A stretch of DNA of 45,831 nt from a bacterium. Its GTDB lineage: Bacteria; Patescibacteriota; Saccharimonadia; Saccharimonadales; SZUA-47. Positions 3,897-43,500 of the stretch are shown one piece after another. The position numbers were made by a program, and so were the translations under genes. The stretch's first letter is position 1. Every line of letters begins with the position of its first letter. The stretch spans positions 1-45,831 of the forward strand of contig RFTN01000006.1 in assembly GCA_009923445.1 (NCBI GenBank), read 5' to 3'. The notes below the pieces were generated by a model, which did no database searches, was not told the DNA's origin, and was given only the letters and a program-made list of their open reading frames with translations.

Positions 3897-3964
3897 CTTT
3901 TTTATTATAATCTACCGCTATAATTTAAAAAAAAGTAATTAACAAATTAATTTAGATAGTGTTA

Positions 3965-7978: not shown

Positions 7979-7995
7979 TTGCATTTAAAGTTTAA

Positions 7996-8003
7996 AAAAT
8001 TGA
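7996..8003 (+). promoter_or_regulatory. Mimivirus-type early promoter AAAATTGA
   Basis: Exact octamer ~30 nt upstream of ATG 8033. Confidence 0.6.
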
Positions 8004-8032
8004 GTTGTACACAAGCAAATAGTTATCTGTCA

Positions 8033-9595
8033 ATGAATCTAGAAACGCAAATTGATCTTCTCAAAAATGAGATTCAGGCAATGATTAATAATGGTGATAA
8101 CACAGATGCAAAAGAGGCCAAGACTGCCACACTGCGAGAACTTACTCATAGATTGCGTTCTGACACGAACGATTGTATGGACGACACTAATGATGACACT
8201 AACGCTGAGGTGGACGCGAACGCTGTGGTTGACACTACAACAGGGGAACGATACCTTGACTTTCTCAGTTACTCTCAAATATATTCCCAATACGATCCTA
8301 AGGATGTGCAAGGTATCTTATTCCTAGACGTGTCTGTACTTACAAAGTATGGGTTGTGTCCATTTATTAAAATTGAGCTGGACCCAAATAATGCCGAAAT
8401 GAATGTATCCAATGCAAATGCTATTCGAAACGAACGACTCAAGTGGCTTGAGAGTCAAGACGACAAAGGTGAATTGTATGGAAATCTTGTAGACACGTTG
8501 GTGCACAAGAAGGGTATAAAGGAAGCCCAAGGTGAACTTGACGCTGTCACTCTTGAGATTCAAGAATTCATAAACACGCACCTTGACCCGGAACACAAGG
8601 TCACCCTTGAGACGGTAGAAACAATGGTATCAGAAGTGGTGTCCAGCAACATCAAAACCAAGAAGATAAAAATGGTATTCAAGAATGTTGTCAAATTGTT
8701 GACAGATCTGTTTCACGAGACTGGTATACCTCTACATGAGTACATCAGTCTTAAATACGACATTCAAATCGTCTTGAATACAAACTGTGACAGCGACAAC
8801 ATTAGCGTCGGCGCAAGTGACAATGATAAATTACGCAGTATTTTTTCAGACAATTTTCTTGAATTGTGCAAACGGTACTCCGACGCGAATGCTCTTGTAC
8901 AACAACGTACTCGCTACGTGAACAATGTATTAAAAAACTTGACAAACGAGTTGTATTTGTACATAACACATCAAAAGAACTTTTACATGACGGCCAAGCC
9001 CAAGTCCGTGAGCCAAGAAGGGAAGTACTTTAAGCGCTGGGTGCTACTTACAGACGATGAACGCCAAGATCGTTTTTCCAGTTTTGCTAATTATTATATT
9101 GAAAAGTACATGGTGCAAGAAGGTATTCTCGACACAAGTAGACGCGAGGCAACAGTAAAAAGTTTGACCGATTTGCTTGTAGAAGGATATACTTCCAAGA
9201 GACTGATGTACAAACATTTGAACTACACGCCCAAAAAAGGAATGATTGAGGGCATCAAAATACTGAAGTACAATCGTGACACTCACACATTTTGGCTCAA
9301 GTACGGTGAACTTCCACAAGGCTCTGAAGATAGATCCAAAAAGAAGAGCTCAACAAAAAGTATATTTTCCAAGGAAACCGAAAAGGTCATCAATGAGGCA
9401 GTCTTGTATTACGTCATAAAGAATAATGGAACGGCAAGTGATACAAAGCTGTTTATTGAGCATATCAAAAACAAACTTAAAATAAAGAAAATATCTTCTG
9501 GTGATAAAGCCAAGCTATTACAAAAATACACAGACATCAGTTCGGTTGTTTTGGAGTCCAAAAAAGACTCTAGTACTTTGCAACACGTAGTGTAA
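8033..9595 (+). CDS. Hypothetical protein (coiled-coil N-terminus)
   Basis: Long ORF, first ATG at 8033; no catalytic motif recognised. Confidence 0.75.
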   Translation: MNLETQIDLLKNEIQAMINNGDNTDAKEAKTATLRELTHRLRSDTNDCMDDTNDDTNAEVDANAVVDTTTGERYLDFLSYSQIYSQYDPKDVQGILFLDVSVLTKYGLCPFIKIELDPNNAEMNVSNANAIRNERLKWLESQDDKGELYGNLVDTLVHKKGIKEAQGELDAVTLEIQEFINTHLDPEHKVTLETVETMVSEVVSSNIKTKKIKMVFKNVVKLLTDLFHETGIPLHEYISLKYDIQIVLNTNCDSDNISVGASDNDKLRSIFSDNFLELCKRYSDANALVQQRTRYVNNVLKNLTNELYLYITHQKNFYMTAKPKSVSQEGKYFKRWVLLTDDERQDRFSSFANYYIEKYMVQEGILDTSRREATVKSLTDLLVEGYTSKRLMYKHLNYTPKKGMIEGIKILKYNRDTHTFWLKYGELPQGSEDRSKKKSSTKSIFSKETEKVINEAVLYYVIKNNGTASDTKLFIEHIKNKLKIKKISSGDKAKLLQKYTDISSVVLESKKDSSTLQHVV

Positions 9596-21102: not shown

Positions 21103-24036
21103 ATGAACTTGACAGAGTATATCAAGTCAAAGTATCCAGGTATGGTAAAGGACATCTCATCTGATTCTACAGTAGGATTTATATTAAACAAGTCGAGTGT
21201 GGGAGTTCTAGACGGGGACGGTAATATAAAGACGTTAGGAGATATTCATGAAGTAGAAATGTTGCTCAAAAGTGATTTTAAAAAGATTACGGACAAGATA
21301 CCAGTTGTAGAGCCATTAGGAGATACTGATCTCGACACAGTGACACTGAATGCAGAAAAGGTATCACCTGAGATGGCCAAGAAAATTATTAGCTCATTGA
21401 AAATGTCTTTGAAACAGTCAACTAAACCACCGCAAGCTGTTTTTTTGGCATCCGGACAACCGATTGTAGTAGACAGCCAAAATGCAGAACGTGTGCGGGC
21501 ATTGTCTCAAAAATATGATACCTTGAGAAGTTGCGTAGATACTATTGTCTCTCAAAAAGCCCTAATTGTATCAAGAATAAAGGACTACAATCGCAAGATG
21601 GAAGAGTACATTCGCAGCAATGCCGTCAATTACACTTCACTTAAAACCCTTTACATGGGTGTAAAGTCCGAAAATGAAACATTGCGTCGTCAACTGCAAG
21701 AAGTGCAAAACACATTTGTAAATACGCCAATTTACACAGGTACCACCACAGACACCACTACCACAGGCACGGCTGACACAGTTGACAAGCAAAAATTGCT
21801 TGATGCAATCAATACGATTCAAAATGAACTTTTAAGATCACGTGATCTTTTCAAGCAGGCTCAAGTAAAGGCTTTAGCAATGCAAGCCCATTATCAAAAG
21901 TGTGCACAAACTGTGCTTTCACAAAAGGAAGCCATTATCCAGAAGATAAAGGAGTACAATGGAATCTATGCTAATTGGGCAAATGGCCTTCGTTCGGAGC
22001 TCATAGACGTTCAGGCACACCGCAACAAGCTTTTGGCTGAGCTGAAACAGGTCACGGATCTTTTGGAAGCCAGCAAGTCAGCAAATGTGTCTGCATCCGA
22101 ATCCATTCAACTTCGACAAGCACTTTCAGATATTCGAAAACAGTTAACAAAGACGGTTGCAGACAACCTTATTCAGCTTAATATTCGCGACCGTGAAATA
22201 CAAAGGCTAAATGACTTGTCAAATACACAATCAGCAAATTACAATTCCCAAATTGCACGTCTTAAACGTGAGCTCGAATCGGTCAAAGAGTTGCTGTCAA
22301 AAAACGACACAACAGCCGTCCCACAACCCGATTTTGAAAATTGTTATGCAGTAGTCAAGGCTTTTTGTGCTCTAAACAACGTATTTTTCCGTAAACAAGA
22401 AATCATTAAAAAGCTGGACGCAGTAATTAATTCAAACGCGGGTGAATTTAGTGGTCTTTCTGAAACTGTCAAGAATTCTGTGCGCACGCAATTTGAAGCT
22501 GTGAAAACGGGGATTAATCGTCACATTGACTTTCTTGATCTGAAAAAGTACATTACAGATGCTAGGTGCAGACAAAACTTGGAACTGTTTAAAAGCGATA
22601 TCCTTAAGGATCGCGTTCCCAAATCATTTTGTGATGAACTTTTTGCACTACTTAGGTACTGGGATACAAACAAAGTTGAGTACAGAGATCAAGACCGAAT
22701 TCTTACAAATATCTATGAAGACCTTTCTGGAGCGGTGCGTGTATACATTCGTATCAAGCCTTTGTTAGGCCTTGAGCAGCGCAACCGCACAGTGTCAATC
22801 GAGTCTAATGGAGGAATCCAGCAAAAACGCGTAAAGATTACGTGCGGGACACGTGAAGAGAGTTTTGGCGAGTTTTACGGCGTGTTTGATCAGTCATTTA
22901 CAAACAAGGACGTCTACACAGGCATAGAAAATTCAGAGTCCGTTGTGACCGCCCTTGACAATTCAGCTACACACATTGATGTAGATTCCATTGTACAATC
23001 CCAAGATACGGTGAGCCCAGGGTTGTGGAGCACCATACGTCAAGTTGAGGACGGGTATTCGGTGGTTATTTTTGGATATGGTGCAAGTGGCAGTGGCAAG
23101 ACGATGACGCTCTTGGGCAATGGAAAAATACCAGGTCTAATTCATTTTGCAAGGAGCAACCTTCGTGGAGTGCGTTCATTTAAGCTCAAGTATCTTTTTG
23201 AGCAATATTATTCACTCATTAATTTCAACTTTAAAAAGATTACTGGCAAGATCCACACGCTTGTGGGCAAAATTCCTCAATTGGAGCAATTCACCTACGC
23301 AGAAAACAACCAATTTGCAGCTGATCTCAAGTCGGCAATTGATCTAGATGACATCAAAGAATCGGATTTGTTTGGGCTGACAAGGATCACAGACAATTAC
23401 AGAAAACGAAATTTGCGTGTGGCCAAAACGCCTAATAATCCAGAGTCAAGCCGCTCGCATTTGTATATGGTGTTTGAGGTGACGTTTGAGAATGACACGC
23501 GCGGGTACATTACCTTTGTAGACACAGCAGGAAGGGAATCACCAACAGACATATTTAATACGTTTATTGACTCTACAAAGACCACCATTGAATCCGTACT
23601 AGCGCCTAGTGGTGGCGAACAGCTGATTGCAAAACATGCCCGTCCCGAAATTGCGAGCGAGTACACACCCAAAGAAATACTGGGTGTGCTCAAGCAAGGT
23701 GTGTATATAAACGAAACTATTAATCACATGGTGTACTACTTTAACAAGAAAAACTATCGGGAATCACCCATAACAATGCAATCCGATACAGGTGGATACA
23801 CTACTTCCAAATTCTTTGTAGATCCACGTTCAGAACTCCGCAAAGTATCCGAATCCAATAACGCCTTGACCATTCCTATTCTACAATTCCTTGATAACCT
23901 CAGCAATCGCAGTAAAGGTGACGCAAATTACCGCCCAACCAAATTCGTCACCATCATTGCCCTCCGCCAAGAACTCAAATACTGCGATCAAACATTTGAA
24001 TCCATGCAATTTGCACAATCAATTAAAAGCACCTAA
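21103..24036 (+). CDS. Kinesin with C-terminal motor domain and long coiled-coil (kinesin-14-like topology)
   Basis: GAVRVYIRIKP, DGYSVVIFGYGASGSGKT (P-loop), NPESSRSH (switch I), FVDTAGRE (switch II variant), INETI, terminal TFESMQFA. Confidence 0.9.
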   Translation: MNLTEYIKSKYPGMVKDISSDSTVGFILNKSSVGVLDGDGNIKTLGDIHEVEMLLKSDFKKITDKIPVVEPLGDTDLDTVTLNAEKVSPEMAKKIISSLKMSLKQSTKPPQAVFLASGQPIVVDSQNAERVRALSQKYDTLRSCVDTIVSQKALIVSRIKDYNRKMEEYIRSNAVNYTSLKTLYMGVKSENETLRRQLQEVQNTFVNTPIYTGTTTDTTTTGTADTVDKQKLLDAINTIQNELLRSRDLFKQAQVKALAMQAHYQKCAQTVLSQKEAIIQKIKEYNGIYANWANGLRSELIDVQAHRNKLLAELKQVTDLLEASKSANVSASESIQLRQALSDIRKQLTKTVADNLIQLNIRDREIQRLNDLSNTQSANYNSQIARLKRELESVKELLSKNDTTAVPQPDFENCYAVVKAFCALNNVFFRKQEIIKKLDAVINSNAGEFSGLSETVKNSVRTQFEAVKTGINRHIDFLDLKKYITDARCRQNLELFKSDILKDRVPKSFCDELFALLRYWDTNKVEYRDQDRILTNIYEDLSGAVRVYIRIKPLLGLEQRNRTVSIESNGGIQQKRVKITCGTREESFGEFYGVFDQSFTNKDVYTGIENSESVVTALDNSATHIDVDSIVQSQDTVSPGLWSTIRQVEDGYSVVIFGYGASGSGKTMTLLGNGKIPGLIHFARSNLRGVRSFKLKYLFEQYYSLINFNFKKITGKIHTLVGKIPQLEQFTYAENNQFAADLKSAIDLDDIKESDLFGLTRITDNYRKRNLRVAKTPNNPESSRSHLYMVFEVTFENDTRGYITFVDTAGRESPTDIFNTFIDSTKTTIESVLAPSGGEQLIAKHARPEIASEYTPKEILGVLKQGVYINETINHMVYYFNKKNYRESPITMQSDTGGYTTSKFFVDPRSELRKVSESNNALTIPILQFLDNLSNRSKGDANYRPTKFVTIIALRQELKYCDQTFESMQFAQSIKST

Positions 24037-26042: not shown

Positions 26043-27824
26043 CTATAGTTCTCTATTCATTATGTCATTCAACAATTTTAACTTGGATTTAATTTCATCG
26101 TCGGTCGTGGAAAGTGTATTAATAGTTTCTGTAACAGCGACTGTGCAATTGTAGGAGAGTAAAAAGTGGCTGCATTTAAGAATATCTTGTGAGCAGCCTT
26201 TTTGAATACTTTTGATGCCTTCTATAAGTTTAGCTGCCTTGCGTGTGGCTGGACTATCTTGAAGTTTATTGAGAGCGAACAAAGCACGATTAATGTATTT
26301 TTCCTTATGTATCTTTTGCATCAAATCTGATACATTTTCAATAAATGAATCAACATAGTCAACTGAAGTTAGCTCTATTCCGTTGTTCTTGCACGTTTGT
26401 TGGTTAACGACAACATCTAGGAACGCGCCACGGGTATAATATGTCTCGGATCCATAGTAATTGACCATACTAATGTATGTATTATATACATTCAGTTTAT
26501 CATGGTCCATGTATCGTTTGAAAAAGGTGGCAAAGTTATCAAGTAATCGTTTGTAATCACTATATTTTCGCAAAAAGTTCATTAAATTGTGTGCTGTGTC
26601 TAAATACGAACTGAACTTGCAGTTTGTCTCGATGTAGTTAAGTAGAAGTAAGCTCAAACTGTCGGAATAGCTTCCCACAAATTTAATGTTTTTTAGTAGT
26701 TTCATCAGTGCAAAGACGTGTTGGATGTGTGCATTTGACGCACGTGTGTACTGTAATGTTATGGAGCCGCAAGTGATGGGATTGGAGTAGATAACATCAT
26801 TTTCTGAGGGCGAAAATACAAACGTTCCTTGAAGTTTGATGAAACTTAGTCCATATAAATTGGTATCAAATAGAGTATCCGAGGTTTCATAAGGTCCAAA
26901 GATTGTTTGTAGATTAGTTTCAAAGCATTTAATCACGTTTGAGATGACTTTGTAGTTGCCGTACAACGTGATATCATAATCCGAATCAAGTTTTGTTGAA
27001 CCGACGCTTACCGCATTTATAGAATTGGTTTCTTGTATATTAAGCCGTGAGAGGGCACTAGTTTGGTTTTTGCTTGGTTGTGATGCAAGTGAGCAGACCG
27101 AGATAGAAATGTCAACACACACTTTGCGGAGGTACCAAAACAGGCACTTGCACACGAGCGAAAGCTCCTTAAACACGGTGACAAACTTGGTCGAGGACAA
27201 GCCATCTTGTGCAATGAATTGTTTGATCAGCTCGGTGTTGTCGGAAAACATTCCTAACAAGGTGATTGCCGATGACCTATGTCGTTCAAGGTATCGCTTG
27301 GCTTCGATGACTGACATACGTGTAATGGTTTCCCATACAAACGGTTTGTCTGTTGACATGACTTTGTATTCGTCGTTTTTGGAGGTCAACAAACCATATT
27401 TAGTAAAGAAGTTAAGTGCAATGTTCATGATGTGGCTAGTAGACACTATCTCGTAAGTGCCTTTTTCAAAAATGTACACACGACGTCTATTGACACCGGT
27501 CACACTGTCATTTTGTAAGTCTTTTTTAAGACGTTTTGTGAAATCGTTGAAATTACGGACAATATCTGATGATCCGCACTGTAATTCATACCAGTCAAAG
27601 TTCGAAACAGTGAATTCTAAAAAGGCTTCAAGATCTTTGACCAATGTGTAATCTACTTTGGACATACTTGAAGTGGACGACTTCGTGTCGTCACTAGTGG
27701 CAATGGACAAGGTTGAAAGTCTCATACCTACTGATGACCTGGGTCCCGCGGCAGACAGAGGAGACAGCAAGTCTGTGTGTATTTGACTTGGCCTTAGTGA
27801 TTCAATAGAACTGGTCTGCTCCAT
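26043..27824 (-). CDS. Hypothetical protein with putative Pol-beta-fold nucleotidyltransferase motif
   Basis: SVGSTKLDSDYDITL (GS...DxD) followed by FDTNLY. First ATG at 27824. Confidence 0.6.
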   Translation of the reverse strand: MEQTSSIESLRPSQIHTDLLSPLSAAGPRSSVGMRLSTLSIATSDDTKSSTSSMSKVDYTLVKDLEAFLEFTVSNFDWYELQCGSSDIVRNFNDFTKRLKKDLQNDSVTGVNRRRVYIFEKGTYEIVSTSHIMNIALNFFTKYGLLTSKNDEYKVMSTDKPFVWETITRMSVIEAKRYLERHRSSAITLLGMFSDNTELIKQFIAQDGLSSTKFVTVFKELSLVCKCLFWYLRKVCVDISISVCSLASQPSKNQTSALSRLNIQETNSINAVSVGSTKLDSDYDITLYGNYKVISNVIKCFETNLQTIFGPYETSDTLFDTNLYGLSFIKLQGTFVFSPSENDVIYSNPITCGSITLQYTRASNAHIQHVFALMKLLKNIKFVGSYSDSLSLLLLNYIETNCKFSSYLDTAHNLMNFLRKYSDYKRLLDNFATFFKRYMDHDKLNVYNTYISMVNYYGSETYYTRGAFLDVVVNQQTCKNNGIELTSVDYVDSFIENVSDLMQKIHKEKYINRALFALNKLQDSPATRKAAKLIEGIKSIQKGCSQDILKCSHFLLSYNCTVAVTETINTLSTTDDEIKSKLKLLNDIMNREL

Positions 27825-28007
27825 AATTACCAGTACCACACAAAAAATGTTTGGTATTTTGTCAGTCAATGTAATTATGATTTATTTATTTGTTAATTTT
27901 TTCTTGAAATGGGGGCAGGCAAAAAAGTAATAAAAAAGTAATAAAACCTCAGACGAGAGTGTCGTGACCCCGCCTAAAAGAAATCGGAAAAAACGGGAAA
28001 CCATCAA

Positions 28008-28227
28008 TGGTCTCAAGGGAATTTGCGCAGAAAATGCAAAAAGAGACCAGAAAAAGGGTAGTTTCACGCCTACCCGCGCTCTTCACGCCTAAAATGGTTT
28101 GAACCCGCCATCCCGCCTAAAATAGGAAAGTCCGTAGGGTAAAAGTGTTGTGTAACGTTTTCAGATCAAGGTCCGAAAAAGGGCGGGAATGGCGGAGTCA
28201 AACCATACAAGGAGCGGATGGCGTGAA
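28008..28227. other. GC-richer non-coding element with inverted repeats
   Basis: tggtctc/gagacca stem (28008-28049); atggtttgaacccgccatcccgcc pairs imperfectly with ggcgggaatggcggagtcaaaccat, flanked by ttcacgcc/ggcgtgaa. Confidence 0.55.
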
Positions 28228-28413
28228 CTCATATCATCCTTACATGATTATGGTTTAAAACATATGTTTTCTAAAATTTCAGGTGAGACCATGAACGAAG
28301 TGAAATGAGACGAGGAAAACCGAAAATCGGGGATTGTACAATTGTCCAAACGATATCTTCGTCACGTATAAGCTTCCCTCTATTAAATGTCTTCAGGAGG
28401 GAAATCAAGAGGT

Positions 28414-29085
28414 GCAAGACCACCCATTTACAGCGTCCCTCCTTTCCCTCCTCAAATGTCAGCTTAGTCGATTTTTTTTCGATTAAGAGAAGAAAAGGAC
28501 ACTCCGCAAACCATCTTAAACCACAATCGAGACCACGATGCAATAGAGAATAGAGTGAAATGGGAGACCATCATTCCCAGCTAAAATATCCTTTTTTGTA
28601 AGCAAGACCACCCATTAAGAGCATCCCTCCTTTCCCATCTCAAACGGATATTTTACTACAAAATTTTGAATAAGAAGTTACAAATGAACGCTCATCAAAC
28701 CATCTTAAACCACAATCTAGACCACGGCGCCATCGAGAATAGAGTGAAATGGGAGACCATCATCCCTCCTTTCCCAGCTCAAACGGATATTTTACTACAA
28801 TTTTTTGAACAAGAAGTTACAAATGAACGCTCATCAAACCATCTTAAACCACAATCCAGACCACGATGCAAGAGAATGATGTGAAATGGGAGACCACCAT
28901 TCCCCCCTAAAATGGCCTATTTTGTAAGCAAGACCACCCATCCCTCCTTTCCCAGCTCAAACGGATATTTTACTACAATGTTTTGTACAAGAAGTTACAA
29001 ATGAACTTTCTTCAAAACATCTTAAACGACAATCCAGACCAATATGCAAGAGAATGATGTGAAATGGGAGACCACCATTCCCGGT
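28414..29085. repeat. Four imperfect ~140-190 bp direct repeats
   Basis: tccctcctttccc at 28436, 28624, 28763, 28941; gtgaaatgggagacca at 28555, 28744, 28881, 29059. Confidence 0.9.
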
Positions 29086-29125
29086 TAATTTTTTAAGCAA
29101 GTCGTTGCAACAAGTACTAGTATGT

Positions 29126-29360
29126 GCAAGACCACCCATTTAAAACAACACTTGTAAGCAAGACCACCTGTTTAAAACAACACTTGAACGCACTTGTAAG
29201 CAAGACCACCCATTGTAAGCAATACCACCTGTTTAAAACAACACTTGAACGCACTTGTAAGCAAGACCACCAATTGCAACAAGTTGCCACATAGCTGCTG
29301 CAACAAGTAAGCAAGTGTGTAGTGTGCAAGACCACCCATTTAAAACAACACTTGGACGCA
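29126..29360. repeat. Cluster of short modular repeats (GCAAGACCACC and TTTAAAACAACACTTG)
   Basis: GCAAGACCACC at 29126, 29158, 29200, 29261, 29326 (variant at 29219); TTTAAAACAACACTTG four times. Confidence 0.9.
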
Positions 29361-29489
29361 CTTGTTGCCACATAGCAAGTACGCAAGTGCGTAATGGTGC
29401 CATTTAAGAACGCACTTGAAAGCAATACACAACAGGCACTAAAAAACTGATTTTTGGACAAATTTGGTCACAAAAACCCTATAAGAGAA

Positions 29490-30431
29490 ATGAGAAAGCA
29501 ATTGATGACTACATGTTTACGATCGCATTACACGAATGAGTTTGTAATTGATATGAAAGATGCGTGTTACTTAATAGGACAATTTAGTAGTGTTCATGAG
29601 TATGTAGAGTCACAATACGTAGAGAATGTAGGATACAAAATAGAAAATGGTAGACTAATGTTAAATGTACAGACATTTATAGAGCTGTGTATTGAGAGTA
29701 ACAATCAAGAATCCAAGAAATTCGTAGGATTATTTGTGCAAAACAAACAAGAAACGTATCAAGAATACGAAAAAACTGGTAACATATACATACTAAGAGT
29801 CGAATCGGGTGGCCCATTAAAGATTGGCCGGTCCAAAAATGTCAGTAAACGTGTAGGAAGTTTACAATGTGGGCATCATGAGAAGATTGAAGTACTATAT
29901 GTTTTTTCAACAAGCAATGATGTCTTGCTCGAGCGTATTATTCATGTTGTCCTTGAGAAATACAGGTGCAATTCAGGTCGCGAGTTCTTCAACTGCAATT
30001 TTACTTTCGCCAAAAATGCTTTGATGTTCATAGGAAATGCATTTGAAACATTAATGTCCAGTTTACAAGATATTACACTCGATGAAATATTCGTCAAATT
30101 CAAATTGAAATTTGAAGAACACAAAATGGACTTGGAAGTAAACAACAGTTTGATGGACGTTACGGGAACTGATGAACAAAGCGATTTCGATAAGTGGCTC
30201 CGAAAAAATATCGTAGTAAATCAGAACGCTGTACTGAACTTGACCGATATTTGTAAAGGATATTTGGGTAAAAAAGCACCTTCAAGAATAGCTTCAAAAT
30301 ACAAAACATAGGTTGAAGAATACATTTCTCTTTATTTTCCAGGAATCAATCCCAAGTACACTGATTCAACTTATTGCAAAGTAAAGTTTAAAGGGTGGGC
30401 TGGCTTATCTATTAAAAGAAATGCTATTTAA
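29490..30431 (+). pseudogene. T5orf172/GIY-YIG-like protein with D5-like C-terminal domain interrupted by in-frame TAG (30309-30311)
   Basis: GNIYIL...LKIGRSKNVSKRVGSLQCG...LERIIH..L..YR...REFF. The frame continues 39 codons past the TAG with homology to the D5 C-terminus. It could be a truncated CDS, a readthrough CDS or a sequencing error. Confidence 0.7.
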
Positions 30432-30436
30432 AAGTA

Positions 30437-30444
30437 AAAATTGA
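30437..30444 (+). promoter_or_regulatory. Mimivirus-type early promoter AAAATTGA
   Basis: Exact octamer just upstream of D5 ATG 30460. Confidence 0.6.
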
Positions 30445-30459
30445 TAAACTTCAGTAAGG

Positions 30460-33291
30460 ATGTATACACGCAAGAGCATTGCCTTGAGGGATAAAGACGA
30501 ATCGCAAATTGTGTGTAATGAAGCGATTACAAAGTACTTCCTATTAGACAGTTACACGGAGTTCAGAAGGCTTATAGAGGACACTGAAAGCCCGTGTTTT
30601 TATGAATTTATTGGCTCTGACTCTCCGGTCAAAATGTTCATGGACATTGAAATATACAAATCTAAGCACTTGGACATGTTTAATGATCACAAAACCCTTA
30701 TTACAAGTATTGTCCAGTCTCTTCGAGTTGGACTTGCCGACATGAGCATTGAAACAAGTGTTGTTGTATTAGAGTCTCACAACGACACCAAACGCAGCTA
30801 TCACGTCATTTGTAATGGAGTGCGTAATGGAAAGATCGTTGCATTCCGGAACGCCAAGGCGCTCAAGACATGGATTACGTCGGTTTTTGGAGACCTTGTG
30901 CAACAAAAGATCGTTGATACAGCTGTTTATCGTGAGGGTCTTTTTAGAACGTACCTCAGCAGCAAACAGCATGAGTTTCGCCCGTTGGTGGCGAGTGATA
31001 TATCCGACTCATTTGATTTCTTAGATACTTTTGTGTGCCATTTCCACCTCACCTCACCGGATACTTATGAAATTGTAGAACTGGAAACTGTTACTCAACC
31101 CATAGAAATAGTCACAGAACATGACCAACAACGTGTATATGCTGAGCTTGATGCTTCAGACAAATCCGTTATTTCTCATTTCCTAAGACTTCATTATGCC
31201 ATCCGCCCAACTGACATTCGGGAGTTTCGAGTTGATACGCAATTGAATTGTATCATTATTAGTTTGCACGAGAAATTTTGTTACAATGTTCAAAGGGAGC
31301 ACCGTAGTAACCACCAATACATAGTTATAGACACGTATAGCTCTAAACAAAAGTGCCATGATACCGACTGTAGCAATTTCAAGTACACAGAGATAAAACT
31401 AGACAAATACCCACCAGACCTTTCTCAAATAGTGTTGAAATGCCTGCGTGTCAATCGAATAGAACAAGAGCTTATCCAAAAGGCCAAAGAGGATTGCAAA
31501 GACTACATAAATGAAAATTTTGACAATATTCAAGACATTACATTTGACAAAAACGAGCTTGTGTTTCGCGGAGATGCGACAACGGAAAGTCTAATGCGTG
31601 TAAATGGGAAATGCCCTCAGTGCAACCTTGAGCACCAAATTACAGGTGGTGGATACTGTATACGGTGCCGTGTGTGTAACAGTGTCTTTCCACGAAACCA
31701 GCTAATTCCAGTGGATGCCCGGTTTAAAGAAATACAGTCCTTCTGGAATAACTACACAAATTTGATCAATCATGGGACGGTCAACTACAATGTCACTGTC
31801 AACTACAACTCGGTGGTAGATGATACAGAGCAATTTGATTGTGATGTCAATTTAGAAGAGGACATTCTTAAAAACACACCTATAACAAAGTTATTTAATC
31901 AAATCCTTGATGGACACAAGATTACCAAGATTGGTGAACTGCTCAAGCGTCTTGAAGTGGATTTTCGGTATGCAAATGGGAATTGGTACTACTTTAACGG
32001 AAGTATATGGAAACATGACAATGAAACACTTGAATTTCGGAAAAAGATCGTAAAAATAACGAATATGACGCACACGATAAAGTCGTACTACGAATCAAGA
32101 CGAGGTGAACACAATGCCAAGTTGGTAAAAAGTGTCAAGGGTCTTGCTAACAAGTTCCATCGGCCCGGTTTTCAAGATGAAATTGTCAAGGGTGCCAAGA
32201 TGTATTTTCATGACGAATCGTTCTTAAAAAATCTGAATCGAAAAAAACACCTGGTACCATTTACAAATGGCGTGTTTGATTTGCTTGAACGCAAATTTCG
32301 AAAAACGCGCAAGGATGACTACGTTCTCCTCACAACAGAGTACGCATATGACGAACGTGCACGTAATCCCGGTGTATACGAATTTCTTGAACAGATCTTG
32401 CCTAATGCAGGTGTAAGAGACTTTGTATTAAAGAAGTTATCAGATTGTTTAAATGGTGATATACCAAACACGTATTTTTTAATGTTTATCGGCGACTCGG
32501 GTGCCAATGGCAAAAGTCAACTGCTTAATCTAGCAAAAGCGTGTTTTGGAGAGCTAGGGGAAAAGGTGGAAGTAACACTACTTACACGTAAGAGGAACAA
32601 TGCAAACGAAGCAAATAGCGAAAAGGTCAAATTGATGCACAAACGATTTGCATTTTTAAGTGAACCTGAAGATGGAGAAAAGATTAATATTGGTCTTCTT
32701 AAGGAACTCACTGGCTCGGAGGAAATCGTGGCCCGTGGACTTTACCAAGAACCGGTATCTTTTGTCATGGAAGCAAAGTTGTTCCTTGCATGTAACGAGC
32801 TTCCTGAAATCAAAGGCGAGGACACTGCTTTGTGGCGCAGAATTCGTGTTGTGGATTTCCCATCACGGTTTGTAGACAATCCTCAAAGGCCGGGTGAGTA
32901 CAAGATTGATAGAGACATCCCGTCAAAAATAAGAGAAAATATCTCATGGAGACAAACATTTATGAATATTCTTATTGACTACTACCACAAAGACGTCCCA
33001 GAACCTGAATCAGTTAGAATCACCACAAACGAATACCGCGAAGTAAACAATGACTTTTACAATTGGTTGTCAGAGAATGTCGTTGAATGTCCAGATTCTG
33101 CACTAAGACTCAAGGACGTTTGTGAAACGTACTTGATGAAAACCAAGATAGTGTCAAGAGAATCCACAAAATACAAAAAGGAGATTCAAAGATACATTAA
33201 AGAAAAGTACCCGCATCTAAAATGGGAATACCAAGATACCAGCATTAATGGAGATAAATTTAAAGGATGGGCTAAACTAAAACTCCGTTGA
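30460..33291 (+). CDS. D5: D5-like primase-helicase (AEP/PrimPol primase, Zn domains, SF3 helicase)
   Basis: FMDIE, SYHVI, DTAVY...FRT..SSK (primase); FTNGVFDL; Walker A GANGKS; SEPE, LKELTG, ACNELP, WRRIRVVDFPSRF. Confidence 0.95.
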   Translation: MYTRKSIALRDKDESQIVCNEAITKYFLLDSYTEFRRLIEDTESPCFYEFIGSDSPVKMFMDIEIYKSKHLDMFNDHKTLITSIVQSLRVGLADMSIETSVVVLESHNDTKRSYHVICNGVRNGKIVAFRNAKALKTWITSVFGDLVQQKIVDTAVYREGLFRTYLSSKQHEFRPLVASDISDSFDFLDTFVCHFHLTSPDTYEIVELETVTQPIEIVTEHDQQRVYAELDASDKSVISHFLRLHYAIRPTDIREFRVDTQLNCIIISLHEKFCYNVQREHRSNHQYIVIDTYSSKQKCHDTDCSNFKYTEIKLDKYPPDLSQIVLKCLRVNRIEQELIQKAKEDCKDYINENFDNIQDITFDKNELVFRGDATTESLMRVNGKCPQCNLEHQITGGGYCIRCRVCNSVFPRNQLIPVDARFKEIQSFWNNYTNLINHGTVNYNVTVNYNSVVDDTEQFDCDVNLEEDILKNTPITKLFNQILDGHKITKIGELLKRLEVDFRYANGNWYYFNGSIWKHDNETLEFRKKIVKITNMTHTIKSYYESRRGEHNAKLVKSVKGLANKFHRPGFQDEIVKGAKMYFHDESFLKNLNRKKHLVPFTNGVFDLLERKFRKTRKDDYVLLTTEYAYDERARNPGVYEFLEQILPNAGVRDFVLKKLSDCLNGDIPNTYFLMFIGDSGANGKSQLLNLAKACFGELGEKVEVTLLTRKRNNANEANSEKVKLMHKRFAFLSEPEDGEKINIGLLKELTGSEEIVARGLYQEPVSFVMEAKLFLACNELPEIKGEDTALWRRIRVVDFPSRFVDNPQRPGEYKIDRDIPSKIRENISWRQTFMNILIDYYHKDVPEPESVRITTNEYREVNNDFYNWLSENVVECPDSALRLKDVCETYLMKTKIVSRESTKYKKEIQRYIKEKYPHLKWEYQDTSINGDKFKGWAKLKLR

Positions 33292-34521: not shown

Positions 34522-37500
34522 ATGTCTGGTTTCAACGAGAATGCCATCGTGTACGAGTCGCAGGTGGTCATTAACGGGACATCGGCATCCAGTTCGAGCA
34601 CTGGAGGGCTCATCGTGAGCGGAGGATTGTCGACACGTGATACGTTTGTTAGCGGACATGTGTCGGTGAATCAAGTGAATATCACGCCTAATTTAAATGA
34701 CATTATTTACGAAAAGCAAGCCATCTTATCAAATAGCGTAACGACGTGGACGGACGTAAGCGGATTCCTCTTTGACAACACCATTGCAACCGCGTTCAAG
34801 GCCCATGTTACAGTGAATGTATCTACAGCTGATCCTAAGACGGCTATGTGGGAATTGAACGGTGTGTACCTGAGCAGTGGGTGGACTTTGACATCACGGT
34901 TTACAGGAGACTTGACAGGGGTCAACTTTGCGTTAACGTCTGCAGGTCAAGTTCAATACACAAACACGAACAGCTCTGGTACTACAACAATTAGATACCG
35001 TGCGACGACCAATGCTCCAGCGGGAACAAATCCCCTTAGTTACACAGGAACGGTGCTCCTGAATACGTCTGGGAATTATATTCCCAACAACCTGGTGTAT
35101 GCCAACACGGTTGATACATTGGCCACGACGGATATTACCTACACTTCAGACAAATTTGCAGTAGGAGGCAATTCAGTTGTTGTTATAGATAACGGTAGTA
35201 CATACACTGACGTGTCAAGAGGCGGTGCACTCACGGTAATGGGTGACACGAGTATAGCCAAGACACTTGTAGTCGGTCAGTCTGTAGGTGTTGGAGTGAC
35301 GAGCCCAAGTTACTCTCTGGATGTTTCTGGCGACATCCACTTTACGGGAGAGTTGTATCGCAACGGCGTCCCATTTGTGAGTAGCTTGTGGGGTGCAAAC
35401 GGAAATGATATCTATTACACACGTGGCAGTCTTGGTATCAACACTACCTCTCCGGCTTACACATTAGACGTGGTGGGAACAGCAAGAATCACAGATACCC
35501 TTACCACTGGATCTGTTCTTGCTGGTACTGTAAAAAGCACAGCTGCTACATTGGGCTCAGTCACAGCTACACAGGCGAATTTCACGACATTGTCTGCAGG
35601 AAGTGTCTATGTGACAGGTGACCTCAATGTCCTCTCAAGTGTCAATACAATCAACATGACAGTTGCAAACATGGTCGACACTAACTTGACCGTGTCAAAT
35701 ATCGTTGTTACAGACACGTTGACTGGTGGTTCCTTTGCGGTGTCCAATGCAAATGTATCCCAGTTGTCCACCGGGTCATTAACCTCTCTAAATGCAACTG
35801 TCGGAAGCATAACTAGCACTTCAGTGTCCATTGGCACTCTTTCAGCAATGACTGTAACGTCTGGCAATATAGCTGTTGGAAATGCTACATTATCCAACTT
35901 TGCAGCCGCAAATTTAACATCAGGAAATGTGACTATTACAAACGCAACAGGAACAAATTTAGTAGTAACTGGAAACTTGTCAGCTGGCAATGTATATTCT
36001 ACCGGTATTACTTCAACCAATGTCACAATTACCAATTTGACGTCTGCAAATGTGATCTCCACAAACGCGACAATGACAAACATAAATGTACTGGGCAATA
36101 TGAACGTACCCAATTTGGCCTCAACGAACCTGTCAAGTAGCTCACTCCTCACAACAACCGCCACTATCGGTACCGCGGTATTTGTAAACAGCACACTCAA
36201 CAACATGCAAGCAACAAATGTTACAACAACAAGTCTCTTAACAACAAGTTTGGTGTCTGGTGACATTTCAAGCACAACCGCTACCTCGACAAACATCGTC
36301 TTCACATTTGCTTCAGGAGGAAACTTGTACGTAACGGATGTATCATCCGGGTCCGTGAGCACCACGAATATGACTTCTGGTACATTCGCTGTAAGCAATG
36401 TTACAAGCACGAATATGCAATTCACCAATGCTACTGGAACAAACGTCAATGTAAGCACAGCTACAGCGGGAAGCATTGTCGCCAATACAAGCGTGTCCAC
36501 AGGATCATTTTCTACACGTGATGGCCAATTTACTAATGCAACAGCAACTACAATGATTGTATCGGGAAGTATAACTACTGGCAGTATTGTGGCTACAGGA
36601 AGTGCTACCACAGTTAGTATTACCGCGTCGACCGGTAATTACACAAACGTGACAACTACAAATTTAGTAACAAGCACTGCATCCCTTGGAACACTTGTAG
36701 GAACGGCACTGACAACAGGAACTATTACTGCAACAAATTCTACAGTGACGAATTTAATGTCTACGGCCATTACCTCGGGAAGCATATTTGTTTCTGGTAA
36801 TATTTCTGCAGCCAGTGCATACATCACCACAAGCTTGTCAGCAACAAATGTGTCAACTACTAATGTGTCCTCTACAAACGCCATAGTGACAAATGCAACA
36901 GCTACAAATATCGTTGCAACAAACATTTCTACTGGAACAATCGTGTCCACGAGTGTGTCGACGGCAAATGTGGTGTCTACTAATGCTACTCTTGGTCAAA
37001 TGCAGTTCACGACTGCCACAGGAAATGGACTTGTTTTGTCCACGGGCTTGTCTACAGGCACATTGTTGGCTACAAGTGTAACGGCTGCCAATATCGCTGT
37101 AAACGGAGCAACAGTGTCCAATTTAACAGTTACGAATGTGACAGCATCTAATCTTACATCTACAGGAATTACATCAGGGACTATTCGTGTTACAACTTTA
37201 CTTAGTTCAGCAAATGTCATTGCAACCAATGTTACCTCCACCAATGCCGTTGTCACAACAGGGAGCATTGGAACGCTTGTTAGTACAAATGTGACATCAC
37301 AAAATGTGTCTACACTTAATTTCACATCTGGTAGTGCAAATATCCTTAATGCCACAATGTCCAATGCCACTGTTACAAATATGACCTCAACAAATGTGAA
37401 TGTATCTAATGGTATTACATCCGGTGTGTTATTTGCGACATCGGGTACCTTTAGCACGGTGACTACAACTCAACTTACTGCTACAAACATCACCGCAACA

Positions 37501-40500
37501 AACATCAGTCTTTCTGGAAGCATCCAAACAACCACGGTCACATCCACAAACGCGACAACTGTAAATCTTCAATCCACAAACGCGTCAATTGGCTCGCTGA
37601 CTGTGTCCACGGCATTGGCAGCAACCGGAAATAGCAACACATTGGGAAATATTTTCACAACAGGAGGGAATGTGGGTGTTGCAACAACCAGTCCAAGTTT
37701 CACTCTTGATGTGTCTGGATCAGCACGCTTTAGCGTAGGATTTACCACAGGAACCCTTGCAGCCAATACATCCGTATCAACAGGTTCCCTTGCAACAGGA
37801 ACTTTGACAAGTGGTAATGCACTGATTACATCGATGTCAGTGTCTACATTAAATGCTTCAACAGTGACCACTGGATCTCTTGTCGCCACAAACGTAACAA
37901 CTGGAAGTATGACAGCATCCAATGTCATTGCAAGTAACATCACAAGTGCCACATTGAACTTGACTACTGGTATGACAGCAGGCTCACTTCAGGTTGCAAA
38001 CTTGACAAGCACTGGAAATCTTCAAGCTACACAAGCAACCGTTACAAACGCTATTGTAAGCACTTTTAGCGCAAGCACGCTTGTCATCACGGGCTCAATG
38101 ACCGTTGGATCAAATTTGTCTTCAAATGTCATTTCAGCTGGAAGTATTTCAACGCCAAGTGCAACGACGACGAATCTGATCATTACTAATGCAACAACGT
38201 CTCAAATTGTAGCGACAAATATCACTTCCAGTACTTTGGTGTCAACAAATGTGTCTACATCTAATGTTACAACTACCAATGCCACGGCAACGAATCTTGT
38301 ATTCACAAATGCCACAGGAGCAACATTGACATTGACAACAGGCTTGACAGCAGGCACGGTTTCAGCAATTGCTTCTATTTCTACAGGCGCGTTGTCGGCG
38401 ACAACAAGCACTATTTCGAATATCAATTTCATAAATGCCACTGGTGGAAGCATTGTTCTTTCTGGAAGTATTACTGCGGGGTCATTTGTTGCAACCAATG
38501 TAACTTCAACAAACGTCAGCGCTACGAATGTAACATCAACAAATGCAGTGATTACAAATGCAACGGCTACCAATTTGAACTTGACGACGGGCCTTACAAC
38601 AGCGACGTTATCTGCTACAAACAGCACACTTACGAACGTCATTGCGTCTAATGCCACATTCACAAATGCATTGTTTACGAATGCCACAGGGACGAATTTG
38701 GTCTTAACAAATTTGACATCAAGCAATTTGACGGCTACAAACATCTCAACAGGATCCCTAAATGCTACTAATGCAACGGTGCCCAATGTTGTTTTTACAA
38801 ATGTAAGTGCGGGTGCTTTGAACATCTCTTCGAGCTTGACAGTGTCAAGCGTGTCAACGGGAAGTTTGACTGCTACAAATCATACTTCTACAAACGTCTT
38901 AGTATCAAACATTACCACAAACAACTTGCAAGTCACAAGTACCTTGACAGTGCCTACGTTGTTGGCTTCTACACGTATTACAACAAGCAATGTGTCCACG
39001 TCTTCAGCAACTATTGGTAATGTAGTTGTTACCAACGTGACCGCTGGAACTCTAGTAGCGACGACAGGTGTGACTGCAGGAGTGTTGTTTTCTACTCTTG
39101 GTTCATTTTCGACGGTTACTTCTACATTGTTATCGGCTACTACATTGACGGGCGGAAACATTAGTTTATCTGGTAATTTGGTGGTTGCGGGCACACTTAC
39201 TACGGTCAATGTGACTACTACAAATTTGCTTGACACAAATGTCTCTGCTGGATCGATGCGCGTCACATCGTCGCTTAGTGCGCTTGGAAACAGCAATACA
39301 ATTGGCAGCATTTTCACGACTGGTGGTAATGTGGGCATTGGTACCACGAGCCCCGCCTATAGACTCGATGTCTCAGGTACTGCACGATTCGCCACAGGGC
39401 TTACGACAGGTACACTTGCAGCAAATACAAGCGTGTCATCGGCCAATGTAGCGGCAAACGCGGGTACATTTGGAAGTATTCTGGCTACGAATGTGTCTGC
39501 AAGCACATTAAATGTGACGAATGTGACTACAGGATCGATCCTAGCTACAACGGGTGTGTCCACGGGAACACTTACAGCTACAAACGTCACAGCAACAGGC
39601 GTCACAGCAAGCAATGTACTTGTGACCAATGCCCTTACTGCAGGTAACATTGTGGCTACTACGAGCACTTCTACGGGCAATTTAGCAGCTGGAAATTTGA
39701 CCGTAGGTAGCATTCGAGCTACAACAAGTGTCACAGCAGCAACATTACTAGCAACAACTGGGGTAACAGCAGGCGCATTGAATGTTACATCAACGTTTAC
39801 AGCTCCTTCTGCAATTTTCTCCAATGCTACTGTGACATCCCTGTTTGTCACTAATATTACATCTGCTGGTATTTTTACAACATCCGGTACACTTGGTTCC
39901 GTTACCTCTACAAATGTGACCACTTCGACAATGTTGTCAACCAATGCAACGACAACCAATTTGCAATTTACGGCTGCAACGGGAAGCAATTTGGTGATGA
40001 CAAATGTGACTACAGGTACGCTTAGTGCGACGACGAGTGTCAGTGCTGCCAATGTTGCAGGAGCAAACACAACTACGACTAATCTAGTATTTACCAATGC
40101 AACAGGAACAACATTGACGCTTACTACACTTTCTGCAGGAACGCTAGTGGCCACAACAAGTGTTAGCACAGGCGCGCTTACGGCATCACAAGCCACGATT
40201 GGAAATGTACAAGTTACGGGTGGAGTGACAACTGGATCGATTACGTCGACCACGGCAACAGTGACGTCTTTAGTTGCGTCTACGAATGTGTCCTCAAACA
40301 ATGTGACAGCCACCAATGTCACAAGCACCAACTTAAATGTGACCAATGTGACAAGCACCAATGTGTATGCTACAAATGTGACGTCAAGCACGCTATTGGC
40401 CACGACAAGTGTGAGTACGGCCAATCTTCTTGCCACCAATGCGACATTCCAGAACGTGATTGCAACCAATTTGACGGGATCGAATATTGTAGCAACATCA

Positions 40501-43500
40501 GGTTTTACAACAGGTACGTTACTTGCGTCTACAAGCGTGTCAACCGGAGCTTTCTCGAGCACATCAGCGACGGTAACCAATGCAGTGTTTTCGTCCGGCG
40601 GAACCATTGGTACATTGAATGCCACCGCGATGACGGTTGGAAACATCAACTTTACGGGAACTTTGTCCCAAAACGGTGCGCCATATGTGTCTTCGCAATG
40701 GACGACGGGCAGTGCAGGCAATCTCACATACACTGCAGGAAATGTGGGTATCAATACGACCAATCCACAATTCACGTTGGATGTCAATGGATCGGCGCGT
40801 ATTTCGTCAGGTATTACGGTGAGCAACTTGAACTTTACAGGAAGTTTGTATCAAAATGGTGTTCCATACAGTGCTACGTCACAATGGAGCGACGTGACGG
40901 GTGGCATTGCATACACTGCAGGGAATGTAGGTATTGGAACATCGAGCCCTAGTTACACACTGGATGTGTCTGGAGGCGCCCGTGTGACGGGAAATATAAC
41001 TGCAAGCAACATCGCGTTGCAAAGTTACATCAACAGCTATGGAAACATGGTTTTTAGCACATCAAACAGCACAGCTGTGACGACAAATGTGCGTACAATG
41101 GCAAATCGAATGCGCACGAGCCGAGCCAATGCAACAGCAGCGGTTTCAACATGGACTACACGAGCCAATCCTAGTCCTTTTGATCCATATTTCACATGTG
41201 TCACATGGTCTCCTGAATTGGGGCTTTTTGTTGCATCCGCCGTTAATGGTACTGGACAAGACATTATTTACTCATCAAATGGTGTAAACTGGACTGGTGT
41301 AAATACAAGTGGTGTCAATTTGGACAGAGTTGTTTGGGCAGCTGAGTTGGGTCTTTTTGTTATTGTAGGAAGCATGGGAATAGGAATGACATCTTCCACG
41401 GGTACTACATACACAACTGTTAGCATACCGTCACAAAATTGGGCTGGTATAACATGGAGTCCAGAGTTGTCCCTTCTTGTAGCTGTGGCCAATTCCGGAA
41501 CAGGCAATCGTGTGATGACATCCCCAGACGGTACCACGTGGACGACACAAAGAAGTGCTGCAGACAACTCTTGGTATGGAGTTACATGGAGTCCAGAATT
41601 GGGGATATTTGTGGCTGTGGCGGGTTCAGGTACAGGCAATCGTGTCATGACATCTCCAGATGGTATTAATTGGACTACACAAACAAGCGCAGCAGACAAC
41701 ATATGGAACAGTGTAGTGTGGTCAAGTGAGCTTGCTCTTTTTGTTGCAGTGGGTAGTTCTGGAACAGGTAATCGCGTGATGACCAGTCCAGACGGTATTA
41801 CGTGGACGACACGTACGAGCGCTGCAGATAATAGTTGGTATTGGGTCACTTGGAGTCCTGAACTGTCACTGTTCGTAGCTGTGGCAACTTCAGGCACAGG
41901 CAATGGTGTAATGACCAGTTCGGACGCAATAACATGGACCACACGTGCAAGTGCAGTAGACAATCAATGGAGAAGTGTGTGCTGGAGTCCTGAGCTGTCC
42001 ATCTTTGTTGCTGTTTCATATTCAGGAACGGGCAATCGGGTGATGACCTCTCGAATCGCATTGCCCTCGAGCAAGTCTGTGCCATTGGTGTCTCCTGCAT
42101 ATCTTACAGTCACCGATGGCAATTTGAACTTGGCGGGTAATTTGACCGTTGGCACGCTTGTGCTTACAACGGGACTTACAGTGAGTTCATTGGCTGTGAC
42201 ATCCTCGTTGAGTACGGGTACAATGAATGCAACGAATGCTACTGTAACCAATGCTGTGGTGACAAACGTTTCAGCTGGCAATATTGTTATTGGTACGGGA
42301 GCGACGCTAGGAAACGTCCTTGCCACGACAAGTGTGAGCACGGCCAATTTGGCAGCCAGCACAATTACCTCAGCCAATTTACTTGGAACATCCTTGACGG
42401 CAGGTACACTTGTAAGTACAAATGCCACCCTTGCAAATGTGACTACGACGAATTTAGTGGCGACTGTTATTACAGGAGGTACATTAAACTTGTCAGGAAA
42501 CCTGACGGTGTCAGGCACACTTACCATTACAAATTTGACCACAACCAACTTGGTAGACACAAATTTGTCCGTGGGAACGATGTATGTGAGCTCTGGATTG
42601 ACAGTGGTAGGATCATCCAATACAATAGGCAATATCTTTTTCACTGGAGGTAATATTGGTATCAATACAACAAGCCCTGCGTACACATTGGATGTTTCGG
42701 GAACGGGAGCATTTACAAATGTACTTGCGACAAATGTGAGTGCAAGTAACGCAACAGTGACAAATATGCTGGCAACGAATGTCACATTGTCGAATTTAAG
42801 CTTGTCCAATTTCACAGTTGGTTCGTTTGTTGGAACAAATATCAGCACATCTAGTTTGACATCTACAAATGCAACAACTTCAAATGTACAGGCGACTAGC
42901 GTTACAGCAACCAATTTACTAGTTACTACTGGTTTTACATCTGGGGCACTTGCAGTGACAGGGACATTGACTGCGGGATCCATTGTGTCTACGAGCGGTA
43001 CATTTACAAATGTGACAACGGACAGTCTGTTTGCAAATTCAGTTACAACTGGTAATGTGGTTGCTACAAACGTCACCAGTACAAATTTACAAGCTACGGA
43101 AACAAGCATCGGAAGTGCATTGTTGACAGGAATGACGGCAACCAATCTGACGGTGACCACAGGCTTTACAGCTGGCACAGTGCTTGTAAACAGCATTACG
43201 TCAAGCAATGGACAGTTCACAAATGTTACCATAGCAAATGTTCTTGCAACTAACGTGAGCTCTACGAATATCGTTGTTTCGGGTAATATGACGACAGGAC
43301 TCCTTACAGTCACATCTGCATTGTCTACGGGTTCAATTGTGGGAGCAAACGCCCAATTTACTACTTCGACAGTGACAAATTTGACCCTTACAAATATGAC
43401 GGCAAGTTCCTTAGTAACCAACTCTGCGACACTTACGGGAATTAACAGCACTACGGGTACACTTGGCAATGTACTTTTTACAAACGCTACGGGAACATCA

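Follow-up and report, generated by a model that had tools for sequence, protein, structure and literature searches.

What kind of gene encodes a nuclease whose C-terminus resembles the tail of the helicase encoded next to it, and why should an in-frame TAG cut that C-terminus in two? The question is raised by contig RFTN01000006.1 of assembly GCA_009923445.1, the whole of which was analyzed (45,831 nucleotides, hereafter the window). A gene for a protein with MUG113 and T5orf172 domains, the latter of the GIY-YIG nuclease superfamily, stands here immediately upstream of a gene for a D5-type primase-helicase (D5). The window is one contig (C123) within a 1.8-Mb bin of 177 contigs. Although the record is labeled bacterial, the contig is giant-virus DNA, carrying genes for a major capsid protein of nucleocytoplasmic large DNA viruses, TFIIS, MutS, asparagine synthase and a YqaJ recombinase in addition to D5. 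The interrupted gene is, in our opinion, likely to be a recently truncated, homing-endonuclease-like gene that belongs to a modular giant-virus family exchanging a winged helix with the D5 tail.

The elements of the locus are as follows.

27870..29453, + strand: non-coding, repeat-rich DNA of about 1.6 kb, directly 5′ of the nuclease gene
29490..30308, + strand: T5orf172/MUG113 gene up to the TAG, with 273 codons counted from ATG 29490 (alternative start TTG 29454; the gene-caller version, P0003, starts at ATG 29505 and has 268 amino acids)
Residues ~1–86 of the nuclease protein: N-terminal MSV199-like alpha/beta domain
29784–30023, + strand: T5orf172 core, residues 99–178, then a helical linker and the N-terminal half of the predicted winged helix
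30183..30413, + strand: predicted winged-helix, tail-like module, residues 232–308 of the read-through protein, split by the TAG
30309..30311, + strand: in-frame TAG at residue 274 (module residue 45), between predicted helices 3 and 4
30312..30431, + strand: 39 in-frame sense codons (30312–30428) and the closing TAA (30429–30431), encoding predicted helix 4, the beta-hairpin wing and the family-conserved Gly-Trp
30460..33291, + strand: intact D5-type primase-helicase gene, 943 amino acids, with a Herpes_UL52 primase motif, D5_N and DUF5906 (Pfam); relatives are 49–63% identical. It starts 28 nucleotides beyond the TAA of the nuclease gene
33049..33288, + strand: C-terminal tail of D5, residues 864–943, homologous to the nuclease module

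The module shared by the nuclease and D5

The homology of the two C-termini is established by direct comparison. Aligned with D5 by BLASTP, the read-through protein (with X at the TAG) matches D5 residues 864–943 over its residues 243–321, with 31 of 80 positions identical (39%) and an E-value of 1e-14. The match is a single alignment with one gap and runs across the TAG position, at which the X is paired with a D5 glutamate (codon GAG at 33181–33183). An initial annotation of this DNA had proposed that the nuclease C-terminus aligns with the D5 end, that the TAG at 30309–30311 falls on this glutamate and that the 39 codons beyond it are intact; the alignment proves significant, and both of the other points agree with the sequence. 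Moreover, each part of the interrupted module is recognizable on its own. Against a hidden Markov model (HMM) of the module, built from alignment A2, in which the window contributes one of 27 rows, the 39-residue piece after the TAG scores E 3e-9 and the piece before it E 2e-12. The window retains 13 of the 15 class-conserved A2 columns before the TAG and 14 of the 15 after it.

The remainder of the gene is equally well preserved. Pfam places MUG113 (E 8e-14; 52.4 bits, with a cut-off of 22.3) and T5orf172 (E 8e-9; 36.4 bits, with a cut-off of 20) at residues 111–190 of the read-through protein, P0001. All residues that are invariant in a 30-row alignment of the window protein and 29 phmmer homologues are present in the window: K111, G113, R121, E148, H152, E165, F167, S190 and W303. 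The last of these and the nearly invariant G302 are encoded after the TAG. Putative catalytic residues of the core were assigned from general knowledge of GIY-YIG enzymes together with the E180A design given in the text of PMC8263062. No defect other than the TAG was seen in the window's gene.

The module is a property of a large family. An exhaustive phmmer search with the read-through protein against 1.84 billion representatives returned 487 matches at E ≤ 1e-3, 166 of them at E ≤ 1e-10. Among the 150 matches listed, about 41 have a best stretch that covers the T5orf172 core and reaches at least query residue 304, beyond the TAG at residue 274; many matches span the core alone and end near query residue 200–220, and these are module-less relatives. 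In the 30 aligned proteins, Pfam detects MUG113 in 30, T5orf172 in 29, Bro-N in 10 and MSV199 in 8, and the family architecture is Bro-N or MSV199, then MUG113/T5orf172, then one to three C-terminal modules. In a larger protein collection, a profile search recovered 127 clusters at E ≤ 1e-20, labeled by their sources as “prophage antirepressor-like protein” or “hypothetical”. A typical member would thus combine a Bro-N or MSV199 DNA-binding domain with a T5orf172 nuclease core and one to three putative winged helices homologous to the tail of its own virus's D5.

An unusual arrangement was encountered in P0253 (815 amino acids), for which the source names the chytrid Quaeritorhiza haematococci: T5orf172/MUG113 and D5_N occur there in one predicted protein. 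The same fungal assembly is the source of several family members, which points either to integrated giant-virus DNA or to a gene model that merges two neighbors.

The window module is 38–39% identical to the tail of its own D5 and 40–41% identical to the modules of other family members; with the D5 tail from another lineage, L041, its identity reaches 52%, at E 4e-25 (L-numbers denote loci from IMG/VR, with L003 being contig C3 of the bin). Because it is nearer to the L041 tail and to other family modules, the module was not copied from the neighboring gene. The description of it as a copy of the neighboring D5 C-terminal domain, given in the initial annotation, has therefore to be abandoned in favor of a feature common to the whole T5orf172 family.

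Existing profile libraries do not cover this module. No Pfam model matched it in the 30 rows or in three modules searched alone, and the best that Pfam and PHROGs returned for the module alone was noise, such as the MCM6_C winged helix at E 0.05. Pox_D5 (PF03288) gave no match at E ≤ 10 for the three modules and none in the whole bin, and a profile of 27 modules found nothing below E 0.2 among PDB sequences. The module merits a family model of its own, Pfam being blank at this point.

Structure prediction provides what sequence profiles do not. AlphaFold2 models the module alone (27-row alignment) with a predicted local distance difference test score (pLDDT) of 92.2 and the element order H-beta-H-H-H-beta-beta; the topology is that of a helix, a beta hairpin, three helices and a beta hairpin. 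The full-length protein (pLDDT 87.7) is predicted to have three folded parts with a long helix and floppy residues 220–229 between them. The best Foldseek matches of the module are the DNA-binding domains of RFX5 and RFX1 (E 0.02 and 0.065). Alignment with VIA-align ranks RFX5 (Z 6.2) and RFX1 (Z 5.8) above residues 832–913 of C962R of African swine fever virus (ASFV; Z 5.3), the origin-binding domain of phage P4 (Z 4.4), NrS-1 residues 618–718 (Z 3.1) and residues 695–785 of mpox virus (MPXV) E5 (Z 3.0); the last four are C-terminal domains of primase-helicases. The module is thus predicted with high confidence to be a winged helix, as the initial annotation had supposed.

The position of the TAG within this predicted fold is informative. 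The stop removes the last helix of the module (helix 4) and the wing, without which the truncated product cannot form a winged-helix fold. Translation of the window copy would end between helices 3 and 4 of its sole winged helix. The resulting product of about 268–273 amino acids would keep the N-terminal domain and the nuclease core and lose the last helix and the wing, and with them probably its DNA-targeting domain.

The in-frame TAG

Contigs from Logan bear directly on the reality of the TAG. Contigs from two public runs of two studies (2018 lake water, word depth 13.6; 2019 freshwater, word depth 67.5) show zero differences from the window over 29400–30900 (1501 bases). Both runs are possible sources of the assembly, so that at most one of them is independent. 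The agreement of the two makes a random sequencing error very unlikely, and the TAG is real at the consensus level. That it might instead be an artefact of assembly or sequencing, or an assembled minority allele, draws on the same two circumstances, i.e., that the data are at the contig level and that either run may have given rise to the window; with two contigs, two runs and two studies in agreement at every base of the interval, we regard this explanation as extremely unlikely.

The initial annotation had named homologues with a sense codon as a check on the stop, and all 29 aligned homologues encode a residue in the TAG column: glutamate in 11, glutamine in 7, alanine and aspartate in 3 each, and arginine, tyrosine, valine, leucine and lysine in one each. 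TAG is a normal stop in the window, ending 10 of its 36 long ATG-initiated open reading frames (ORFs), one of them with a TGA directly behind it, alongside 20 that end in TAA and 6 in TGA; the earlier view that there is no global recoding is therefore sound.

The open and conserved downstream frame would also be expected if leaky termination or programmed readthrough supplied some full-length protein with an intact winged helix. This seems very unlikely to us. No tRNA with a CUA anticodon was found in the bin, and no tRNA of any kind in the window. The RNA following the TAG has a folding z-score of −0.50, and 51 of 200 shuffled sequences fold as well. Moreover, TAG serves as an ordinary stop in the 10 ORFs mentioned above, and the homologues, 29 of 29, simply encode the residue. 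The base directly after the TAG is G; in eukaryotes, a G in this position favors efficient termination. Of the three origins of the TAG left open in the initial annotation, the nonsense mutation is the best reading, while sequencing error is disfavored by the agreement of the two contig sets and programmed readthrough by the lack of a suppressor tRNA and of RNA structure.

A nonsense mutation need not mean a loss of function. The truncated protein, comprising the MSV199-like domain and the T5orf172 core, might be the working form, either as a module-less nuclease or as a domesticated regulator, with the TAG tolerated or selected. The many module-less phmmer matches and seven fetched relatives without a module are consistent with this, as are the intact invariant residues of the core, the confident prediction of both the N-terminal domain and the core, and the report, in the abstract of PMC8096241, of a phage satellite that uses a domesticated endonuclease as a regulator. 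However, the 43 module residues that remain would form an unfolded stub, the high retention of conserved columns downstream (14 of 15) points to a recent event and not to an old, adapted form, and no homologue ends at the TAG position. For these reasons, we consider a functional truncated form to be improbable.

Recent truncation of a homing-endonuclease-like gene accounts better for these data. The mutation is presumed recent because the 39 downstream codons are still family-like, and the 39-codon piece cannot be expressed alone, since it contains no ATG. Truncation would represent a stage of degeneration expected of selfish genes of this type. The stop codon is, in our opinion, ordinary gene decay, and it is the shared, exchanged domain that makes the locus interesting.

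Adjacency and exchange with D5 in relatives

The behavior of the family is best seen in relatives of the window. Fifty IMG/VR loci with D5 genes 49–63% identical to that of the window were scanned with two HMMs, one for the T5orf172 core and one for the module. The module HMM matches the D5 tail in 47 of them. A family gene or a fragment of one is found 0.3–4.3 kb downstream of the D5 stop in 21 of the 50 loci. When D5 genes are clustered at 90% identity, the element is present in 13 of 33 clusters, as a full gene in 9 and only as fragments in 4. The D5 locus is thus polymorphic for the presence of the element, with the reservation that several of the clusters scored as lacking it have short flanks. 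The neighboring gene is oriented in tandem with D5 or convergently. Upstream of D5, the flanks hold nothing beyond a module fragment in L046 and, in a single cluster, a Bro-N protein with a weak T5orf172 match (E 4e-7). A 478-amino-acid Bro-N/T5orf172 protein upstream of D5 in L008 was considered as a carrier of two modules and rejected, its best relevant BLASTP match having an E-value of 0.085.

The association is also evident when the search starts from the nuclease. Among 19 loci encoding a T5orf172 core and a module in one ORF, 16 have a D5 gene no more than 6 kb away, and of the other three, two lie at contig ends; of the relatives that lack the module, none (0 of 7) has a D5 gene within this distance. 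Truncated or fragmentary copies recur (L028, L038/L010, L040, L051 and L056). The window gene is the sole member of the family in the 1.8-Mb bin. These observations suggest that the genes of the relatives behave as free-standing, homing-endonuclease-type selfish genes at D5, absent or fragmentary in some lineages.

Exchange between the two genes is most apparent in L009, where a Bro-N/T5orf172 gene comes after D5. The two proteins do not differ in their last 47 residues, and at the nucleotide level the 3′ ends of the genes are 100% identical for about 150 nucleotides up to both stop codons. Outside this tract, identity is much lower upstream, and the downstream sequences are unrelated. Judged by its sharp limits in the sequence, the tract is a gene-conversion tract. 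In a separate feature of L009, positions 3511–3741, right after the D5 stop, hold a decayed copy (77–84% identical) of the 5′ end of the neighboring Bro-N/T5orf172 gene (3905–4132), as though the boundary between two nuclease genes in tandem had been joined to D5.

Similar, if less perfect, matching is seen more widely. For 11 of 19 neighbor modules, representing 7 of 12 clusters, the tail of the same virus's D5 ranks first in similarity among about 47 D5 tails, and the 3′ half is often the part more alike between a neighbor module and its own D5 tail. Together with L009, this ranking shows tracts of recombination or co-conversion in the flanking gene of relatives. A quick maximum-likelihood tree of 74 modules (83 columns; about one locus per cluster and a few extra), weakly resolved, does not place the D5 tails in one clade; its starred branches force at least six label changes, and three starred pairs join a D5 tail with the module of its own neighbor. 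In the relatives, the module has been swapped with the D5 tail repeatedly, via gene conversion.

Several observations weigh against this interpretation of the window gene. First, many T5orf172 relatives naturally lack the module, so that the truncated protein may still work. Second, the VIA-align Z-scores of 3–6 are modest, in a range that the program calls common for small folds, and the best nuclease matches of the full-length model in Foldseek, the GIY-YIG enzymes Slx1 and UvrC (N-terminal domain), have E-values of 0.35–1.2, with none at E ≤ 0.001. Third, the window gene lies upstream of D5 and those of the relatives downstream, and no conversion tract between the window nuclease gene and its own D5 was seen at 38–39% protein identity. 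Fourth, the D5 and nuclease locus sets share contigs and are not independent samples. Control loci around MutS contained no family match in 131,951 bases, but they come from viruses that are 26–29% identical and hence poorly matched; the internal contrasts in adjacency among the relatives are strong despite this weak control. Finally, the Logan match, being at the contig level, could hide a minority sense allele. A word-based search for a close orthologue gave solely the protein itself, in its 268-amino-acid truncated form, and no relative of the whole nuclease protein was found in IMG/VR; the TAG mutation cannot be dated, because no close orthologue with a sense-codon allele was found.

Repeat arrays, neighboring genes and known systems

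The non-coding DNA upstream of the nuclease gene raises the further question of what the shared module might recognize. The interval 27870–29453 contains iteron-like direct repeats of GCAAGACCACC, with eight exact sites and one site with a single mismatch between 28414 and 29336, all on the + strand. At up to one mismatch, 10 matches occur in the window, 9 of them in the array, whereas 0.71 are expected by chance window-wide. The same interval holds nested direct repeat families of 61, 85 and 144 nucleotides, and both Logan contigs begin inside it, near 29325. The rest of the 1.8-Mb bin lacks the exact motif, and the window iteron is absent from 70 other loci. In IMG/VR, the exact 15-mer is found in at least 130 stretches with merely one or two copies each, which we take as chance. 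Rfam gave no match at E ≤ 0.1 over 27500–30600. The array is a candidate protein-binding array or origin, and it presumably belongs to the nuclease/D5 system.

About a dozen related lineages have non-coding tandem arrays just 3′ of D5 or the nuclease gene, whether or not the nuclease gene is there. Examples are given below. Several of them are built on TTTTGACA-like units, and the array sequences differ between lineages.

L013, 11168–11492: tandem array
L016, 9230–9580: tandem array
L020, 8083–8381: tandem array
L025, 10310–10706: tandem array
L038, 9552–9952: tandem array
L051, 9233–9638: tandem array
L059, 9734–10380: tandem array

It is conceivable, along the lines of the initial annotation, that in intact members of the family the common winged helix gives the nuclease and D5 the same DNA address in such iteron-like arrays, so that the nuclease cuts or nicks where D5 loads. 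The origin-binding domain of the P4 primase-helicase is among the structural neighbors of the module, the ICP1 nuclease Odn offers a precedent (PMC8263062), the array immediately 5′ of the gene pair is unique in the bin and others lie near D5 in about a dozen lineages, and gene conversion keeps neighbor modules matched to the local D5 tail. On the other hand, no binding is known for these tails, and direct DNA binding by the similarly placed Tail of C962R was unclear to the authors who described it (PMC10516667). A nuclease with the specificity of its own virus's helicase would also endanger its own genome; the arrays vary by lineage, with the 15-mer of the window scattered through IMG/VR; and the window module is broken and shares merely 38–39% identity with the local tail. 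On balance, a shared address is unlikely, if less so than a functional truncated protein.

A still more specific proposal, to which we assign a low probability, is that the common winged helix is iteron-binding and that the arrays (in the window, 27870–29453) would be origins placed beside their initiator, as in P4 and staphylococcal islands, where the nuclease would cut or nick. The adjacency to D5, the matching of modules and the arrays would all be accounted for by a common DNA address at an origin next to D5. If this were true, the homing of the nuclease to the D5 locus would be explained, in mixed infections the nuclease would serve as a weapon or as an accessory of replication, and the locus would mark a giant-virus replication origin. 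We know of no mapped replication origin for this group of giant viruses.

The significance of the locus lies in its family context more than in the truncation: a mobile nuclease and a replication enzyme that is essential have one domain of DNA-binding type in common and keep exchanging it, with the two genes adjacent in most sampled lineages. This provides a handle on how homing-type nucleases acquire targeting domains, on the reason for the association of T5orf172 genes with D5-like helicases in giant viruses and on where a D5 helicase might load, the flanking arrays being candidate sites.

Other features of the window and of its bin should be mentioned. A second, different D5 gene is located on contig C3 of the bin (L003), and no T5orf172 gene lies beside it. 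Just downstream of this D5, L003 carries at 2249–3232 (− strand) a 327-amino-acid ORF whose C-terminal CxxC...CxxC resembles transposon proteins of the TnpB/OrfB type. At least two giant-virus contigs, C3 and that of the window, appear to have been mis-binned into the bacterial genome record. In the window itself, a 977-amino-acid ORF at 21103–24036 combines a kinesin motor domain (Pfam Kinesin, E 4e-12), an unusual viral gene, with a long, coiled-coil-like N-terminal part. A single open frame of at least 3770 codons (34522–45831) runs off the contig end; its Pfam match, MotY_N at E 8e-7, is unconvincing. A dCMP deaminase ORF (7562–7978) and a 538-codon ORF (7979–9595) lie in the same frame with one TAA between them. 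This could reflect two genes side by side or another interrupted gene; Pfam has no match in the second ORF.

Four known systems can be compared with the locus. The seg and mob genes of T-even phages are free-standing homing endonuclease genes that reside beside a conserved essential gene, are patchily distributed, show sharp-edged identity tracts and frequently decay. The family described here resembles them in its essential neighbor, its patchiness, its identity tracts and its decay. It differs in having a domain in common with D5, and homing by its members is putative. To our knowledge, no protein domain is common to the seg and mob enzymes and the proteins encoded by the target genes that they flank.

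Previously described T5orf172/MUG113 proteins (PF10544, PF13455; GIY-YIG superfamily) of phages and entomopoxviruses have the same Pfam domains and the same modularity with Bro-N and MSV199; multiple and truncated copies and an association with D5-like helicase genes are further points of likeness. The shuffling of Bro-N, KilA-N, MSV199 and T5orf172 domains was reportedly treated in a Genome Biology paper of 2002. In the passages of the T5orf172 literature that were consulted, no description was found of a C-terminal winged helix common with the D5 tail or of conversion between the two. According to PMC11296320, T5orf172 genes are proposed homing endonuclease genes that, in nucleocytoviruses, are associated with D5-like helicases. 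A table row of PMC8715426 clusters PF10544, PF10553, PF02498 and PF03288.

Structural parallels among primase-helicases are the Tail of ASFV C962R and the origin-binding domain of P4 gp-alpha (PDB 1ka8), each located, like the D5 homologue of our module, at the very C-terminus of a D5-type primase-helicase. According to the text of PMC10516667, residues 833–910 of C962R form a “Tail domain”, a winged helix like the P4 origin-binding domain and Rfx1, which contributes to unwinding. The comparisons made by the authors of C962R are the same as those obtained here, where the Tail and the P4 domain are among the best structural matches of the predicted winged helix (Z 5.3 and 4.4), along with RFX domains. 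They differ from the module in that no sequence similarity is detectable, and the Z-scores are modest.

The closest analogue with a demonstrated activity is Odn (Gp88) of ICP1, and the analogy is one of architecture. As described in the text of PMC8263062, this T5orf172 nuclease has a DNA-binding domain 42% identical to the origin-binding domain of a replication initiator and cuts the corresponding origin solely if iterons are present. Both systems thus join a T5orf172 nuclease to a DNA-binding-type domain that is common with a replication protein; in the family described here, the identity to D5 tails is 39–52%. The two differ in that the borrowed domain of Odn is N-terminal, of the RepA_N type, and taken from the PLE satellite, a rival element with an origin that Odn destroys. 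Targeting of a rival's origin does not apply to our locus, where the partner helicase is in the same genome: the predicted winged helix is C-terminal, and its partner is the same virus's own helicase, encoded 28 nucleotides away.

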